Sequence record: NC_054928.1
DNA length: 64,000 nt
From: Escherichia phage vB_vPM_PD112
Direction: 5' to 3' (one strand)
Position 1 is the stretch's first letter. Each line of letters begins with the position of its first letter. Both the position numbers and the translations under genes were made by a program. The notes under the pieces were generated by a model. It was not told the origin of the DNA and ran no database searches. It saw nothing but the letters and a program-made list of their open reading frames with translations. Of the stretch, positions 1 to 39,141 are shown one piece after another.

Positions 1-133
1 TTGCGTTATCAGAAAGAGACAAAACCCATGCTCGACGAATTTTATTTTGGTTTTGTGGATTTGAATCAGAACGCACGTGTTTTGGCTGAATATCTTTTAC
101 ATCAACAGTATAATTCACAGTAATTTTAGTCAT
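1..133 (-). CDS. hypothetical protein, N-terminal part only (gene runs off window start; rpbA position in T4 order)
   Basis: ATG at 131-133 on minus strand, ORF open to window edge ([14 protein letters not shown]...); identity not verified. Confidence 0.35.
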
Positions 134-9138: not shown

Positions 9139-9253
9139 ATTTTACCCTTAATTGATTAACCAAGCATTGATAAGCACTAAACTATACTGTGAATAAAATT
9201 CTGGACCAAAATGAAAAATCATATCATTTATAGTATCCATAATGTAATTCAAT

Positions 9254-9724
9254 TTAATCATGTTTCCACACCCCATCGGTATTTGACCAAAGTCGCTGAT
9301 TATCTGATCCTCGCCACAGCTTTTTGGTCGGAAGATTTTTCTCATACTTCCCATCAATAATAACATCAACATATTTAAGCATTTCTAGTTGTTTAATATC
9401 TTCAAACTTATATCCTGTCCACAACCAAATGCTTTTATTGGGATAAAGATTTTTTACTGTTTGAACAATGCAATGAACATCATCTCGGTTATCAGGATAA
9501 AGAGGGTCTCCTCCAGTTATAGTTAATCCTTCTATATAATCATTATTCAAACATTCAATTAATTGTTCTAGTGTTTCACCAGTGAATGGAACGCCATTTC
9601 TAGCATTCCATGTTGATTTATTATAACACCCTTCACATTTATGCAAACACCCCGTAACGAAAAGAACGACCCTGCATCCAGGGCCATTTACAAAGCAGCA
9701 CGGGTATATTCTGTCATAATTCAT
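9254..9724 (-). CDS. nrdG: anaerobic ribonucleotide reductase activating protein NrdG (radical SAM)
   Basis: CxxxCxxC cluster (CLHKCEGC); ATG at residue 8 gives 156 aa as in T4. Confidence 0.85.
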   Translation of the reverse strand: MNYDRIYPCCFVNGPGCRVVLFVTGCLHKCEGCYNKSTWNARNGVPFTGETLEQLIECLNNDYIEGLTITGGDPLYPDNRDDVHCIVQTVKNLYPNKSIWLWTGYKFEDIKQLEMLKYVDVIIDGKYEKNLPTKKLWRGSDNQRLWSNTDGVWKHD

Positions 9725-9963
9725 AATAATATCCAATTTTTCCAAGCTTCATCAGTAGAATTACAGCGTTTTAGTATAAGATGTCTAGAAACTTTTATGG
9801 CATTTGAGCACTTTTTAATTGAATCATATTTTAATAAAGCGGCACGAATCAATGTTCCTGACCCCATATAACCGTCATTTATGTTATCGGTGCTATGCGC
9901 ACCGATATATTCCTTTGAATTAATTATATTTGTTATTTTATAAATTATATAATACCTATGCAT
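9721..9963 (-). CDS. GIY-YIG nuclease domain-only ORF (truncated seg-like homing endonuclease remnant)
   Basis: 80 aa with YIIYKITN...EYIGAHST motif similar to segB N-terminus; no DNA-binding domain; overlaps nrdD 3' end by 8 nt. Confidence 0.55.
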   Translation of the reverse strand: MHRYYIIYKITNIINSKEYIGAHSTDNINDGYMGSGTLIRAALLKYDSIKKCSNAIKVSRHLILKRCNSTDEAWKNWILL

Positions 9964-11773
9964 GTTTTACTCGTTTTACCATTTCTTTCATTTTACCTAA
10001 ATTCCATGGAACAACGCTAGGAGTTCCAAGATATCCGCATGTTCTTCTTATGGTGTTCATCTTTTTAGGATCAGTTTCTCCACAAATAGAACAAACAAAT
10101 CCGTTCTCGGTTGGAGTCATTTCATGGGTACTTCCACACGTAAAACATTTATCTACTGGCATATTAACGCCAAAATAATCTAAATGTTGTGCAGCATAAT
10201 CCCATACAGCCTCAAGGCCTTTTAGGTTATTTTTCATATCAGGAAGTTCAACATAAGAAATGTGACCGCCTGTCGCGATGAAATGATATGGGGCTTCGCG
10301 AGAAATCTTTTCAAATGGAGTAATATTTTCTTCTACTGAAACGTGGAAACTGTTAGTGTACCAGCCTTTATCAGTAACATCTTTTACACTTCCATATTTT
10401 TCGGTATCAAGTTTACAGAAGCGATAGCACAGGTTTTCAGCAGGAGTAGAATACAAGCTAAAAGCAAATCCGGTTCTTTCAGTCCACTGCTTAAGATGAG
10501 TATTCATTTTAGTTAAAATTTCTTGTCCAATATCACGACCGACAAGAATATTCAATTCGTGAATACCAATGTATCCTAGGGACACTGAACTTCTACCATT
10601 TTTAAATAACTCAATTATATCGTCATCAGGTTTAAGACGAACCCCGAATGCACCTTCCTGGTAAAGAATAGGAGCAACAGTAGCTTTAACTCCTTTTAAG
10701 GAACTAATTCTACACATCAATGCTTCAAAACATAAATCCATTCGTTCATTGAACAATTCGGCAAATTTCTGTTCATTGAACTGTGTTCCAATATAAGAAT
10801 CTAATGCAATACGAGGAAGATTCAGTGTTACAACACCAAGATTATTACGTCCATCAAGAATTTCATTACCAGTCGAATCTTTCCATACGCCCAAGAAACT
10901 ACGGCAACCCATTGGAGAAACAGGAATAGATGAACCGGTGATAGCTTTATTGTTCTTAGCCGAAATGATGTCAGGATACATTCTTTTGCTTGCGCACTCT
11001 AAAGCAAGCTGCTTAATATCATAGTTCGGATCGTCTTTATAAAGATTAACACCTTCTTCAACGAACATAACAAGTTTAGGGAAAATAGGAGTTATCCCAT
11101 CACGACCGAGACCTTTAATACGATTTTTCAGAATTGCTTTCTGAATCATTCGTTCAGTCCAGTCAGTTCCCGTACCAAATGTAATTGTTACAAAAGGAGT
11201 TTGTCCGTTTGAACTAAAGAGAGTATTTACTTCATATTCATAAGCTTGGAACGCATCGTATACGTCTTTTTCTGTTTTAGATTGGGCATAATTCAACGCA
11301 TCAGTGATTTGCCATTTTTCCGCGTCCTCAATATGTTTCGCATAGGTGCGTTTAACATAAGGAGAAAGTACTTTATCTACATTCGCAAAAGTCGTTCCGC
11401 CATATTGATGAGAAGCAACCTGTGCAGTAATTTGTGCCATAATTGCAGTAGCAACGCCAATTGATTTAGGAGTTTCAATCTGTGCATTACCGAGCTTAAA
11501 TCCGTTCTCAAGCATTCCTTTTAAATCTACTAAACAGCAATTAGTAAAAGGCAATGATATACTGTAATCTAAATCATGAAAATGAATTAACCCGGCATTA
11601 TGAGCATTTACAATATGGCTTGGAAGAATACTGCAAGCGATATGTTTAGAAACAATACCGGCCATTAAATCTCTTTTTGTTGGAAAGACACGAGAATCTT
11701 TGTTGGCGTTTTCGGTATTTAATTCTTTATCTTTATTTGAAATAAAATTTAAAACATCTTTCTCTAAAGACAT
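9956..11773 (-). CDS. nrdD: anaerobic ribonucleoside-triphosphate reductase NrdD (glycyl radical enzyme)
   Basis: 605 aa continuous ORF; C-terminal glycyl radical motif RRTCGY and Zn-ribbon cysteines. Confidence 0.9.
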   Translation of the reverse strand: MSLEKDVLNFISNKDKELNTENANKDSRVFPTKRDLMAGIVSKHIACSILPSHIVNAHNAGLIHFHDLDYSISLPFTNCCLVDLKGMLENGFKLGNAQIETPKSIGVATAIMAQITAQVASHQYGGTTFANVDKVLSPYVKRTYAKHIEDAEKWQITDALNYAQSKTEKDVYDAFQAYEYEVNTLFSSNGQTPFVTITFGTGTDWTERMIQKAILKNRIKGLGRDGITPIFPKLVMFVEEGVNLYKDDPNYDIKQLALECASKRMYPDIISAKNNKAITGSSIPVSPMGCRSFLGVWKDSTGNEILDGRNNLGVVTLNLPRIALDSYIGTQFNEQKFAELFNERMDLCFEALMCRISSLKGVKATVAPILYQEGAFGVRLKPDDDIIELFKNGRSSVSLGYIGIHELNILVGRDIGQEILTKMNTHLKQWTERTGFAFSLYSTPAENLCYRFCKLDTEKYGSVKDVTDKGWYTNSFHVSVEENITPFEKISREAPYHFIATGGHISYVELPDMKNNLKGLEAVWDYAAQHLDYFGVNMPVDKCFTCGSTHEMTPTENGFVCSICGETDPKKMNTIRRTCGYLGTPSVVPWNLGKMKEMVKRVKHA

Positions 11774-12585
11774 AATTCTAATTTATCCTTTTGAAATTCT
11801 TCGTCTAAATATGGGTTCCAACCCATTTTAAACCTTTTGATGAAATTATCAATTCTAAATTTCGGTAAGTTTAAATCCGCAAAAATAGATGATTTACTTT
11901 TAAAATCTGGACCTAAATAATCATATAAAATTTCTGCGTATTTTAACCATAATATATAAGTACCAGATTTAATTGCTCTCGGAGTTTTCCAAGGTTTTAC
12001 ACCATACATCGGATTTCCACTTCCTTTATGCCTGATAGAAGATGAAATTCCAATTTTAATTTTAGCTTCCTCTGTATGCGAAAATCCATGATGTGGATTT
12101 TCTTTCCAGTATTTTTTAGAAGCTTCTGATATTTTCTTTCTGGCTAAATTAGTATGATGCTTTCCATAAAATCCATGATTTTTACCTTTATTACGATTTC
12201 TTTTAATCATGGTTATTGATTGCTTTTTTCTAGTTTCTTTAGAAGGAGAAACACCGTATGTTGTAAATTGACCATTAGCATATGCTAAATTAAAATACTC
12301 TTTATTCCATATATCTTTTTCTATATTCTTTTGAAATTCAGCTTCAATGCTAGTTATTTGCTCATCTCCGACTAATTGAAAATATAATATTTCAACTTTC
12401 GGCGTTTCTTTCAACAGGGCTTTTTGAAATTCGGAAGATGACGAAGACGAATAATAAAATTTACCATTTTTATCAATAATATTCGTTCCGTCAAAAGTGC
12501 AATTGGTTTTACTTCCAATATAATAATACGGCGGGGTTTTAGCATTAATTCTACTAATAAATGATAGTTTATATACTACATTCAT
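11764..12585 (-). CDS. putative GIY-YIG family homing endonuclease with NUMOD3-like repeats
   Basis: N-terminal VVYKL...YYYIGSKTN (degenerate GIY-YIG); repeated GxxHxxExKxKIS-like motifs. Confidence 0.55.
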   Translation of the reverse strand: MNVVYKLSFISRINAKTPPYYYIGSKTNCTFDGTNIIDKNGKFYYSSSSSSEFQKALLKETPKVEILYFQLVGDEQITSIEAEFQKNIEKDIWNKEYFNLAYANGQFTTYGVSPSKETRKKQSITMIKRNRNKGKNHGFYGKHHTNLARKKISEASKKYWKENPHHGFSHTEEAKIKIGISSSIRHKGSGNPMYGVKPWKTPRAIKSGTYILWLKYAEILYDYLGPDFKSKSSIFADLNLPKFRIDNFIKRFKMGWNPYLDEEFQKDKLELCL

Positions 12586-13055
12586 TTTAAACTCTTTCTA
12601 AGCTGCTTCTTAAATGAAGCTATTAATTGTGTTTTGGTGTCAGATTCATTATATTCAAATCCTCTTTGAAGCATCTCAGCCATCATTTCCTCTTTTCCTA
12701 AACGAGAAAATTCCTTTGATTTATCTCCAACGAAGTTAGGGTGAATATTATTTTGGGTGTAATCGGATTTTAAATAAGTAAGTAAATTTTCTAACCATTC
12801 AAGATAATCAACGCCTTGTCCCTTTAAGCCAGAACGATTAAATTTGTGTTTCATTTGACCTTCTGCAGCATTACACAGATTACAAAGCAATCCACGTACC
12901 TTTCCAGCTTTCGGTCCATTTAATTCATGGTCATGGTCAAGGTGATTAGCTTGAACATCAGGATTTAGTTCTCGTTGGCAAATTAAGCATTTACCGTTTT
13001 GTGCATTATAAAATTTTTGTTTTTCTTCTTTGTATAATTTGCCAGTCAATAACAT
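12582..13055 (-). CDS. 49: endonuclease VII (Holliday junction resolvase) gp49
   Basis: 157 aa as in T4; Zn-binding cysteines and HLDHDHELNG catalytic region. Confidence 0.9.
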   Translation of the reverse strand: MLLTGKLYKEEKQKFYNAQNGKCLICQRELNPDVQANHLDHDHELNGPKAGKVRGLLCNLCNAAEGQMKHKFNRSGLKGQGVDYLEWLENLLTYLKSDYTQNNIHPNFVGDKSKEFSRLGKEEMMAEMLQRGFEYNESDTKTQLIASFKKQLRKSLK

Positions 13056-13097
13056 AATAAAACCCTTACCTTGAATAGATAAGGGTATTTATTATTT

Positions 13098-13274
13098 TCA
13101 AGTATTGTAAAACATTCGATGCAATCGCTTATATTGTCGAATCATCTTTTTAGTAGGACGAGAATAAGTTCCTACACAAGTGGTCATATTAGGGTCAGTA
13201 GGACTTCCTTTAATAAAAAGTTTCCAGACTTTACCACCATTTAACTTTTCAGTATAAATCAATTCAGTTTTCAT
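13098..13274 (-). CDS. small hypothetical ORF (about 58 aa, below track cutoff)
   Basis: Hand translation; ATG overlaps upstream stop; fills gap before gene 49. Confidence 0.3.
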   Translation of the reverse strand: MKTELIYTEKLNGGKVWKLFIKGSPTDPNMTTCVGTYSRPTKKMIRQYKRLHRMFYNT

Positions 13275-37215: not shown

Positions 37216-37292
37216 TGGTCGAGGCAGAAGGATTCTAACCTTCAACCAACGGATTAGAAATCCGTTGCTCTATACAATTGAGCTATGCCCCG
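37216..37292 (-). tRNA. tRNA-Arg (anticodon UCU)
   Basis: Hand-folded cloverleaf; 7-bp acceptor stem with one G-U; anticodon loop TTTCTAA; encoded CCA. Confidence 0.7.
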
Positions 37293-37295
37293 TAA

Positions 37296-37961
37296 TTAAA
37301 ATTTCATTTTTCGACCTTTAAACCATCCTTCTGGAATTGGGTCAGTTTTCTTAATACGTTTAGAAACTTTTTCATCTAATGAATGAATCCACATCATGCC
37401 AAATTGGGAATTCTTTTCACCTTGTTGGTGTTTATTTCTGGCGTGAGATTCTTTCATTTTATTAATAGTTTCAGGAGTATGATGCTTATTTAAAAATCTG
37501 CTATTATTTAAAAATTTTTCCCTGTATTCAGGAGTTGACCACAAGCGTTTAAATACATTTGAACCATTTTTACGATATTTTTCTTGAAGTAAAATATCAT
37601 TTTTAAAACGTGACTTAAACGATTTAGCTCCTTTTAAACTAGCGTCTTTCTTCTGATTTAGCATCTCAGGAATATTTATATGATCCCATCCACCTTCACC
37701 GCCAAGTTTTAAATTATACACATCAGGTCTATTTAAAAACTCTTCTGTGACAATATTTTTCTCGGCTTCAAGCATAGATTCTTTATCGTCAAAATATTCT
37801 AATATTTCTTTAGAAAAATTTTCTATACCATACCTGTCTTGGGCTCTTTTTAATAATTTACCAGAACCCATATATCCATCATCTAAATTTTCGGTAGAAT
37901 GCACACCAATATAAATTTTATTATTAATTTTATTTGTTATTTTATAAGCGTAATGGAACAT
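37296..37961 (-). CDS. segB: GIY-YIG homing endonuclease SegB
   Basis: 221 aa; YAYKITNKINNKIYIGVHST GIY-YIG motif; inside tRNA cluster as in T4. Confidence 0.85.
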   Translation of the reverse strand: MFHYAYKITNKINNKIYIGVHSTENLDDGYMGSGKLLKRAQDRYGIENFSKEILEYFDDKESMLEAEKNIVTEEFLNRPDVYNLKLGGEGGWDHINIPEMLNQKKDASLKGAKSFKSRFKNDILLQEKYRKNGSNVFKRLWSTPEYREKFLNNSRFLNKHHTPETINKMKESHARNKHQQGEKNSQFGMMWIHSLDEKVSKRIKKTDPIPEGWFKGRKMKF

Positions 37962-38002
37962 AAATATCTCCTATTTCTAAGAGTATTTATGTTCCCAAAA
38001 TA

Positions 38003-38076
38003 TGACCCAGACCAGATTCGAACTGATAACCTTTCCCTTATGAGGGGACTGCTGCTAACCATTGAGCTACAGGGCC
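38003..38076 (-). tRNA. tRNA-Ile (anticodon CAU; may score as Met)
   Basis: Hand-folded; T-arm ATCAG/TTCGAAT/CTGGT; anticodon loop CTCATAA; one acceptor mismatch. Confidence 0.65.
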
Positions 38077-38082
38077 TTGATA

Positions 38083-38155
38083 TGCTGATTGACGGAATCG
38101 AACCGCCGACCTTCTCATTACAAGTGAGTTGCTCTACCTACTGAGCTAAATCAGC
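38083..38155 (-). tRNA. tRNA-Thr (anticodon UGU)
   Basis: Acceptor GCTGATT/AATCAGC; anticodon loop CTTGTAA; T-loop TTCGATT. Confidence 0.8.
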
Positions 38156-38162
38156 GAAATTA

Positions 38163-38249
38163 CGGAGGCGATAGGATTTGAACCTATGAGTCGCCGGAGC
38201 GACTGCCGGTTTTCAAGACCGGTGCATTAAACCACTCTGCCACGCCTCC
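38163..38249 (-). tRNA. tRNA-Ser (anticodon UGA), long variable arm
   Basis: Acceptor GGAGGCG/CGCCTCC; anticodon loop CTTGAAA; long extra arm; T-loop TTCAAAT. Confidence 0.8.
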
Positions 38250-38251
38250 AG

Positions 38252-38325
38252 TCTCCGTGGCAGGATTTGAACCTACGACATTCTGCTCCCAAAGCAGACG
38301 CTCTACCAAACTGAGCTACACGGAG
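38252..38325 (-). tRNA. tRNA-Pro (anticodon UGG)
   Basis: Acceptor CTCCGTG/CACGGAG; anticodon loop TTTGGGA. Confidence 0.8.
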
Positions 38326-38337
38326 TAAATTAAATTT

Positions 38338-38409
<72 letters not shown>

Positions 38410-38415
38410 AAACTT

Positions 38416-38502
38416 TGGTACGAGAAGTGGGACTCGAACCCACAAGGAAATCATTCCGCAGCATTTTAAGTGCTGTGCCTTTACCAATTTGACCATTCTC
38501 GC
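38416..38502 (-). tRNA. tRNA-Leu (anticodon UAA), long variable arm
   Basis: Acceptor GCGAGAA/TTCTCGT; anticodon loop CTTAAAA; encoded CCA. Confidence 0.8.
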
Positions 38503-38508
38503 TCTATA

Positions 38509-39141
38509 TTATTTATTACGTGAAAAAGATTGTTCTATCAATTCTGGACACTTTCGTTCTATCCATTTTCTAGCTTTTTGTGGGCTTATACCTATTATTT
38601 TAGCAGCTTTACTAACCCATCCAAATTTAGAATAATCGATTTTAACTAATTCTTCGTAAATTTCATCAGTTAAAATCTTTTCATTAATATTTACCAGTAA
38701 ATGATATAATTTATTATCATTAGCAATTTTAATGAATCTTTTATAGTTTCCGCCTTTACTTAAACCTAATGAAGTAATTGCAGATGATATAGTAGCCGAA
38801 TTTAATAGTGCGTTTAAAATTTCTTCATCACTAACATTATAACGCTTTTTATTATTTTTAATATTTTTACCAGCAAAAGTATCAGTTTGCGAATGGCAAT
38901 TTGGACATAATAATCTTAAATTTGATTTAAGATGATTTTTGTTATTTCCATCAATATGGTCTAATTGCAGAACAATATGCTTATTTTGCCATTTTGAAAT
39001 TTTACAAATTGCGCACTCATATGGAAAAATATTTTCTTTTATTATTTTATCTTTCAGCTTTCCTGTACTAAAATTTGGATGTTTTCCTTCAAAAATTTCA
39101 GCTAATTTAGTATCCATAATATGATTCCCAATTATTAACAA
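38509..39141 (-). CDS. HNH homing endonuclease (mob-like)
   Basis: HNH motif LDHIDGNNKNHLKSNLRLLCPNCH; 210 aa; stop 6 nt from tRNA-Leu 5' end. Confidence 0.75.
   Translation of the reverse strand: MLIIGNHIMDTKLAEIFEGKHPNFSTGKLKDKIIKENIFPYECAICKISKWQNKHIVLQLDHIDGNNKNHLKSNLRLLCPNCHSQTDTFAGKNIKNNKKRYNVSDEEILNALLNSATISSAITSLGLSKGGNYKRFIKIANDNKLYHLLVNINEKILTDEIYEELVKIDYSKFGWVSKAAKIIGISPQKARKWIERKCPELIEQSFSRNK

Follow-up and report, generated by a model that had tools for sequence, protein, structure and literature searches.

A rare deletion allele of the homing endonuclease gene segH at the nrdD–nrdG junction of Escherichia phage vB_vPM_PD112

The nrdD–nrdG locus

A 64,000-nt stretch of DNA from Escherichia phage vB_vPM_PD112 (NC_054928.1), hereafter the window, was analysed with respect to an 80-codon open reading frame (ORF) that lies between nrdD and nrdG, the latter encoding the activase of the anaerobic ribonucleotide reductase. 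This ORF is very probably a null allele of the homing endonuclease gene segH, produced by one internal in-frame deletion, as judged from its match to intact copies of the gene. The surrounding 3.5-kb segment (9200..12700) of this T4-like phage (Tequatrovirus) is 90–98% identical to hundreds of T4-like phage records, and gene 49, a Seg-like ORF, nrdD, the 80-codon ORF and nrdG are all carried on the minus strand. The features of the locus are listed in Table 1.

The 80-codon ORF begins with an ATG, overlaps the 3' end of nrdD by 8 nt (9956..9963), and shares the ATGA at 9721..9724 between its TGA stop codon and the ATG of nrdG. Its coordinates and the overlap with nrdD agree with those in a preliminary description of this DNA, which had been made from the letters and their ORFs. 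The start of nrdG was placed at a TTG at 9745 by the ORF lister; the ATG at 9724, which gives 156 residues, is used in most annotated relatives. In phages with an empty site, the nrdD stop codon directly overlaps the nrdG start, and in T4 the nrdG/nrdD intergenic site is occupied by mobC (PMC2988022, Table 1).

Table 1. Features of the nrdD–nrdG region, with coordinates in the window.
Feature	Coordinates	Strand	Evidence
nrdG, anaerobic ribonucleotide reductase activase, 156 residues from the ATG at 9724	9254..9724	-	Fer4_12, E 2e-48
delta-segH, 80 codons, SegH 1–46 fused to 243–276	9721..9963	-	RB3 segH minus nt 140–727
Retained 3' part, SegH codons 243–276 and stop, with the bases immediately before the nrdG start	9721..9825	-	Alignment, tblastn, PF20987, model
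Deletion junction, single AAATATG copy (CATATTT on the plus strand)	9825..9831	-	Prefix/suffix comparison with RB3 segH
Retained 5' part, SegH codons 1–46 (GIY and YIG motifs)	9826..9963	-	tblastn 100% over 46 residues; AlphaFold2 model; I-TevI best PDB match
nrdD, uninterrupted, 605 codons	9956..11773	-	Pfam NRDD and Gly_radical; comparison with relatives
segH-linked alternative nrdD 3' tail, ...GTPSVVPWNLGKMKEMVKRVKHA	9956..10019	-	Comparison with T6 and the empty-site allele
Unoccupied T4-type nrdD intron insertion site, between GCTTATGAAT and ATGAAGTAAAT on the coding strand	11235..11236	-	Alignment with Lv5cm
Alternative nrdD 5' end, first 240 nt, accompanying the upstream endonuclease gene	11534..11773	-	Comparison with T6
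Intact Seg-like homing endonuclease ORF, 273 residues, in the gene 49/nrdD interval	11764..12585	-	NUMOD3, E 1e-8; PHROG 7504, E 9e-34
Gene 49 (endonuclease VII)	12582..13055	-	

Identity of the 80-codon ORF

Close relatives such as Pu-Krd-SF5 and Lv5cm carry an 831-nt gene of 276 codons at the same site and with the same two overlaps, and the gene at this junction is named segH in the GenBank records of phages T6, RB3 and LZ2 (AY262137-9). Alignment of the window protein with RB3 SegH showed residues 1–46 and 243–276 to be retained at 100% identity and separated by one 196-residue gap. At the nucleotide level, removal of nt 140–727 from RB3 segH yields the window ORF base for base; the deletion thus comprises 588 nt, or 196 codons (47–242), and is in frame and wholly within segH. 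The gene in question was reportedly described as a free-standing GIY-YIG homing endonuclease gene by Sandegren, Nord and Sjoberg in 2005 (NAR 33:6203). The window ORF and RB3 segH have a common prefix of 139 nt and a common suffix of 111 nt, which overlap by 7 nt. The overlap corresponds to a microhomology, AAATATG, present at nt 133–139 and 721–727 of full-length segH, and both copies are embedded in an imperfect repeat, TATTAAAATATG / TATTAAATATG.

When SegH was searched against the locus with tblastn, only the two in-frame end pieces were recovered, with no SegH coding in other frames; the only other SegH match in the window was a SegB-like paralogue in the tRNA cluster (37296..37961). The 80-residue protein matched PHROG 314, annotated as 'homing endonuclease', over residues 1–46 only (E 1.2e-15), and no Pfam domain was detected in it. 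No evidence contradicting the deletion itself was found. The ORF is regarded as a pseudogene-like deletion allele of segH and not as a functional member of the family. The proposal in the preliminary description that it is the footprint of a decayed free-standing homing endonuclease therefore stands, given the segH genes of relatives at the same site, their identical overlaps and the exact deletion from RB3 segH, and no full-length endonuclease can be recovered by frameshift correction. Its portrayal as a remnant consisting of a GIY-YIG domain alone had to be abandoned, because both gene ends are kept and the middle is gone, which corresponds to an internal deletion rather than a C-terminal truncation.

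Predicted consequences for the protein

The N-terminus of the 80-residue protein carries the GIY...YIG signature in the form YIIYKITN...KEYIGAH, and the tyrosines and the glycine of the two motifs (SegH Y8, Y19 and G21) are present. An alignment of 24 SegH family members has 19 invariant columns, 11 of which are retained (Y8, T11, N12, Y19, G21, T25, D30, Y32, G34, S35 and G36) and eight deleted (G47, F51, E69, V73, Y84, N85, G89 and G90). A search of the PDB with SegH as a single sequence gave chance matches only, and I-TevI was reached through a family profile and a structure search. The profile found the I-TevI catalytic domain (1MK0/1LN0, E 0.04), with SegH N85 aligned to I-TevI N90 and SegH E69 one column off I-TevI residue 75, which is an alanine in 1MK0 (an entry titled 'E75A mutant'). 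An AlphaFold2 model of full-length SegH had a mean predicted local distance difference test score (pLDDT) of 80, with values above 90 across residues 1–90 and of 42–70 in the C-terminal region, which is the least confident. In Foldseek, the best PDB match of this model was again the I-TevI catalytic domain (probability 1.0; TM-score of 0.61 on the target), followed by the I-TevI DNA-binding domain 1I3J (probability 0.51).

Mapped onto this model, the window protein keeps strands b1 (4–12) and b2 (18–25), helix a1 (37–46), and the C-terminal helix 245–252 with the tail, whereas b3, a2, a3, the long helical NUMOD3 region and strands 235–242 are deleted. Only b1, b2 and a1 of the complete GIY-YIG fold (b1-b2-a1-b3-a2-a3) are thus found. 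Both the catalytic glutamate (I-TevI E75; SegH E69) and the asparagine (I-TevI N90; SegH N85) fall within the deleted residues 47–242. Pfam detected NUMOD3 in full-length SegH and none in the 80-residue protein. Residues 226–273 of SegH match the profile of the I-TevI DNA-binding (helix-turn-helix) domain, PF20987, with E 3e-4, which is below the Pfam cut-off; the 243–276 side of this stretch is kept and the strands before the helix-turn-helix are lost, in a region where model confidence is low.

With the catalytic Glu and Asn, one strand, two helices and all NUMOD3 modules absent, the 80-residue product should be catalytically dead, neither cutting DNA nor promoting its own homing. The catalytic motif, earlier called intact, amounts to the first half of the GIY-YIG domain, with b3, a2 including E69, and N85 lost. 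The DNA-binding domain, said to be missing, is partly represented, as the C-terminal end of SegH provides the last 34 residues, which belong to the stretch that matches PF20987. A related scheme, in which an intact GIY-YIG domain had lost its DNA-binding domain by truncation or frameshift, was rejected and is close to inconceivable: the GIY and YIG motifs are indeed present at the N-terminus, but only residues 1–46 of about 95 catalytic residues remain, the 34 C-terminal residues derive from the DNA-binding end, and no SegH-like coding occurs in other frames.

Occurrence of the deletion allele

segH is carried by about 71–79 phage records. Compared with the window, all 60 listed records with the gene have additional nucleotides at the junction, 588 in nearly all of them and 592 in phage sutha. 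In the latter, segH (L007 320..1154) has undergone a 4-nt duplication of ATAA that causes a frameshift and splits the gene into two ORFs, so decay of segH is also seen outside the window. A 72-nt query spanning the junction was covered by no record of the phage collection, and the junction 36-mer was not found in the viral, metagenome or genome contig collections. A look-up of the exact 80-residue protein across about 15 billion proteins gave a single further occurrence, compared with a SegH cluster of 74 members, and this second copy came from that look-up only.

The second copy is carried by L005, an ENA metagenome contig of 634 nt (sample ERZ9424069), which has the same junction and different flanks. 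Contig and window are identical over 363 nt (9692..10054) and differ at 20 flanking sites. About half of these differences are polymorphisms common to other phages; roughly nine others, private to the contig and of the type G>T or C>A, lie close to the contig end. Eight private changes of this type cluster within positions 1..70 of the contig, at 3.9x coverage, where they alter conserved NrdD residues; the private differences are probably read-end errors and not divergence. Since an identical protein and junction are found on an independent metagenome contig with different flanks, the deletion allele is real and exists in at least two related backgrounds. It is nevertheless rare. The retained parts of segH carry no private substitution because the gene is nearly identical in all carriers, and the one candidate considered for separating a single origin from recurrence, at 9852, was rejected as it is common to RB3 and many others. 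The two occurrences may reflect either a single origin followed by recombination or recurrence at the same repeat.

nrdD and its two ends

The preliminary description of nrdD as a single uninterrupted ORF without an intron was confirmed. The 605-residue product is matched by Pfam NRDD across the whole profile (1–562, E 1e-170) and by Gly_radical. Comparison with the intron-containing nrdD of Salmonella phage Lv5cm showed the two genes to be colinear, with 1040 additional nt in Lv5cm, including I-TevII, at 11236/11235 of the window, and the absence of an intron follows from this colinearity. An Rfam search for group I introns gave no match in the window and has no power here: Rfam 15 at E <= 0.01 also finds nothing in Lv5cm (L003 3174..4161), despite its T4-type nrdD group I intron with I-TevII, so a negative Rfam result is no evidence against ORF-bearing phage introns. 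Uninterrupted nrdD genes of 1818 nt are found in T6, Pu-Krd-SF4 and Pu-Krd-SF5, and three of the four full-length copies compared are intron-less. Across the phage records, the nrdD intron query was covered to at least 80% in only 44, as against about 680 in which the nrdD core was matched at an identity of at least 90%. The T4 introns are known to occur variably across the T-even phages (PMC2988022), and the lack of an intron in nrdD is common, and therefore unremarkable, among T4-like phages. In Escherichia phage FL18 (L008 1145..1479), a segH-positive Mosigvirus, the annotation places a 'homing endonuclease' of 669 nt upstream of segH instead of an 1818-nt nrdD, and nrdD may be split or mis-annotated there.

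Both ends of nrdD exist in alternative versions. The last ~22 codons, which follow the glycyl-radical motif RRTCGYLG, occur in a segH-linked and an empty-site version. The tail of the window is identical to that of segH-positive T6, whereas that of the empty-site phage Pu-Krd-SF4, ...GNPNERGFNLGKNKEIMHRVKHQ, is strongly diverged. The window has accordingly kept the segH-linked tail despite its dead segH. At the other end, the first 240 nt share only about 65% nucleotide and 67% amino acid identity with T6, after which identity rises abruptly to 97–100%. Endonuclease cassettes have thus supplied both ends of nrdD, which makes the gene a mosaic.

The upstream Seg-like gene and other features of the window

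The 273-residue Seg-like ORF between gene 49 and nrdD overlaps the nrdD start by 10 nt, and its N-terminus is about 40% identical to SegG. It is present at the same site in about 48 phage records (at least 90% identity) and absent from T6. In Pu-Krd-SF4 (L002 2831..3652), the copy of this gene has a disrupted frame, with premature stop codons near its 3' end. Rfam also gave a weak ohsC_RNA match immediately upstream of gene 49 (13054..13120, minus strand); its 28 bits (E 0.34) fall short of the gathering score of 50, and it is probably due to chance. Farther away, the window contains a cluster of seven tRNAs (37219..38502, minus strand). A 221-residue GIY-YIG ORF between the tRNA genes (37296..37961, minus strand) is 52% identical to the N-terminus of SegH and occupies a SegB-like position, and a 210-residue ORF just beside the cluster (38509..39141, minus strand) gave a weak HNH match (E 0.005), which is below the Pfam cut-off.

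Origin of the deletion and its effect on the operon

The deletion may have arisen through replication slippage or illegitimate recombination at the AAATATG microhomology. It left untouched the overlap of the nrdD stop with the segH start, that of the segH stop with the nrdG start, the bases directly preceding the nrdG start codon, and the cassette version of the last ~64 nt of nrdD. As it is confined to the interior of segH, it is of the type of lesion that kills the nuclease and leaves the flanking genes undisturbed. Expression of the nrdD–nrdG operon would then proceed as before. The allele would stand for the phase of degeneration in the life cycle of homing endonucleases, with the remnant persisting only as a passenger. 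The in-frame outcome could be due either to selection, e.g. for translational coupling to nrdG, or to chance; among the maximal repeat pairs of at least 7 nt in segH, 28 of 59 are in frame.

Scans for promoters, terminators and late promoters found nothing above chance in the remnant, and a sigma-70-like site across the junction (9852..9823), with nine of 12 matches, is at background level. At 9885..9907, in the retained 5' part of segH, the codons for EYIGAHSTD contain an inverted repeat whose 9-bp arms match perfectly around a loop of 5 nt (TATCGGTGC..GCACCGATA), a possible mRNA hairpin.

Alternative explanations

An assembly or sequencing artefact in a phage that truly has full-length segH could account for a junction without match in phage records and three contig collections. 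It is hardly credible, as the identical junction and 80-residue ORF recur in an independent metagenome assembly, assemblers do not collapse a 7-nt repeat whose copies are spaced 588 nt apart, and the outcome is a clean reading frame. We likewise consider it very unlikely that the remnant is a functional mini-protein, be it one that binds the SegH recognition site without cutting it and shields the genome against the SegH of a co-infecting phage, or a small regulator. An in-frame deletion with both translational overlaps preserved, 34 retained residues that span most of the stretch matching the I-TevI DNA-binding profile, and the presence of the same allele in two different flanking backgrounds would all be in keeping with such a role. 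Yet an in-frame result is expected in one of three cases by itself, and the count of in-frame repeat pairs given above does not make it exceptional; the protein has lost every NUMOD3 module as well as the strands that precede the helix-turn-helix, and the C-terminal region is the least confidently modelled (pLDDT of 42–70); at the N-terminus, 46 residues make up less than half of a fold; and the allele is very rare, with one other copy in about 15 billion proteins set against the 74-member SegH cluster. There is similarly little chance that a fusion of the N-terminus with the helix-turn-helix was retained for a persisting ability to bind the SegH target or an operator without cutting. If it were, the phage would possess an anti-homing decoy built from the endonuclease itself and would be immune to the SegH of co-infecting relatives.

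A further scenario is that the dead segH is carried along and spread by gene conversion begun by the upstream Seg-like endonuclease, i.e. by homing in trans in the style of MobE and I-TevIII. An intact 273-residue Seg-like ORF does lie 1.8 kb away with its own diverged 5' segment of nrdD, T4 offers a precedent in MobE, which mobilises the defunct I-TevIII (PMC2790892), and delta-segH was seen in two backgrounds. On the other hand, the L005 contig departs from the window within ~90 nt upstream and ~30 nt downstream of the remnant, and differences so close in are unlike a long conversion tract from the far end of nrdD. Moreover, the identical block is the usual picture of a highly conserved segH cassette in all carriers, and the upstream ORF is a putative endonuclease. 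Spread by this route is unlikely; mobilisation of delta-segH in trans by its neighbour is possible but unsupported. Against a null allele of segH, which we continue to favour, it must be set that the loss of activity is deduced from sequence and a predicted structure, that an in-frame deletion that keeps two helix-turn-helix helices may leave room for a non-catalytic role, and that the remnant has gathered no substitutions since the deletion from which selection on it could be read.

Significance and comparison with known systems

delta-segH adds a new and rare null allele to a known gene and exemplifies a textbook stage in the cycle of homing endonucleases. It represents ordinary decay of a homing-endonuclease gene and matters little beyond correct annotation: the ORF is properly labelled a segH deletion remnant (pseudogene-like), and neither 'hypothetical protein' nor 'endonuclease' is apt. 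It is nonetheless a clean natural example of degeneration, in which both breakpoints are known to the base and the intact parent allele is at hand in T6 and RB3, and could serve as a ready natural control in segH homing crosses. Together with the upstream Seg-like gene and the two replaced ends of nrdD, it marks the anaerobic reductase locus of T4-like phages as one heavily used by selfish nucleases.

The SegH proteins of T6, RB3 and LZ2 are encoded at the same nrdD–nrdG locus, with the 8-nt overlap with nrdD, the 4-nt overlap with nrdG, and the linked nrdD tail. The window ORF shares their strand, position and both overlaps, but lacks 196 internal codons, so it falls short of the full length of 276 residues, and its product is predicted to be inactive. 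In architecture, SegH resembles I-TevI, the endonuclease of the T4 td intron (1MK0, 1LN0 and 1I3J), with which it shares the two-part arrangement of an N-terminal GIY-YIG domain and a C-terminal helix-turn-helix joined by a helical NUMOD3 linker. It is, however, only about 25% identical to I-TevI and is free-standing instead of intron-encoded, and the window protein keeps only the two extremities of this arrangement. T4 mobC occupies the same nrdG/nrdD site, but it is of the HNH type and unrelated in sequence, and is thus an alternative occupant and not a homologue.

By analogy, the closest precedent of delta-segH is I-TevIII of T4, a homing endonuclease in the neighbouring aerobic reductase locus. 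As a deletion derivative of the RB3 version, which is intact, it has been inactivated by an internal deletion (PMC2790892; PMC2988022), yet MobE, encoded next to it, continues to mobilise it in trans (PMC2790892). Both cases combine a ribonucleotide reductase locus, an internal deletion, an intact version in relatives and an adjoining intact gene for a free-standing endonuclease. They differ in that I-TevIII is an HNH enzyme encoded within the nrdB intron, whereas delta-segH derives from a free-standing GIY-YIG gene, and in that mobilisation in trans has been demonstrated for I-TevIII and is only conjecture for delta-segH.

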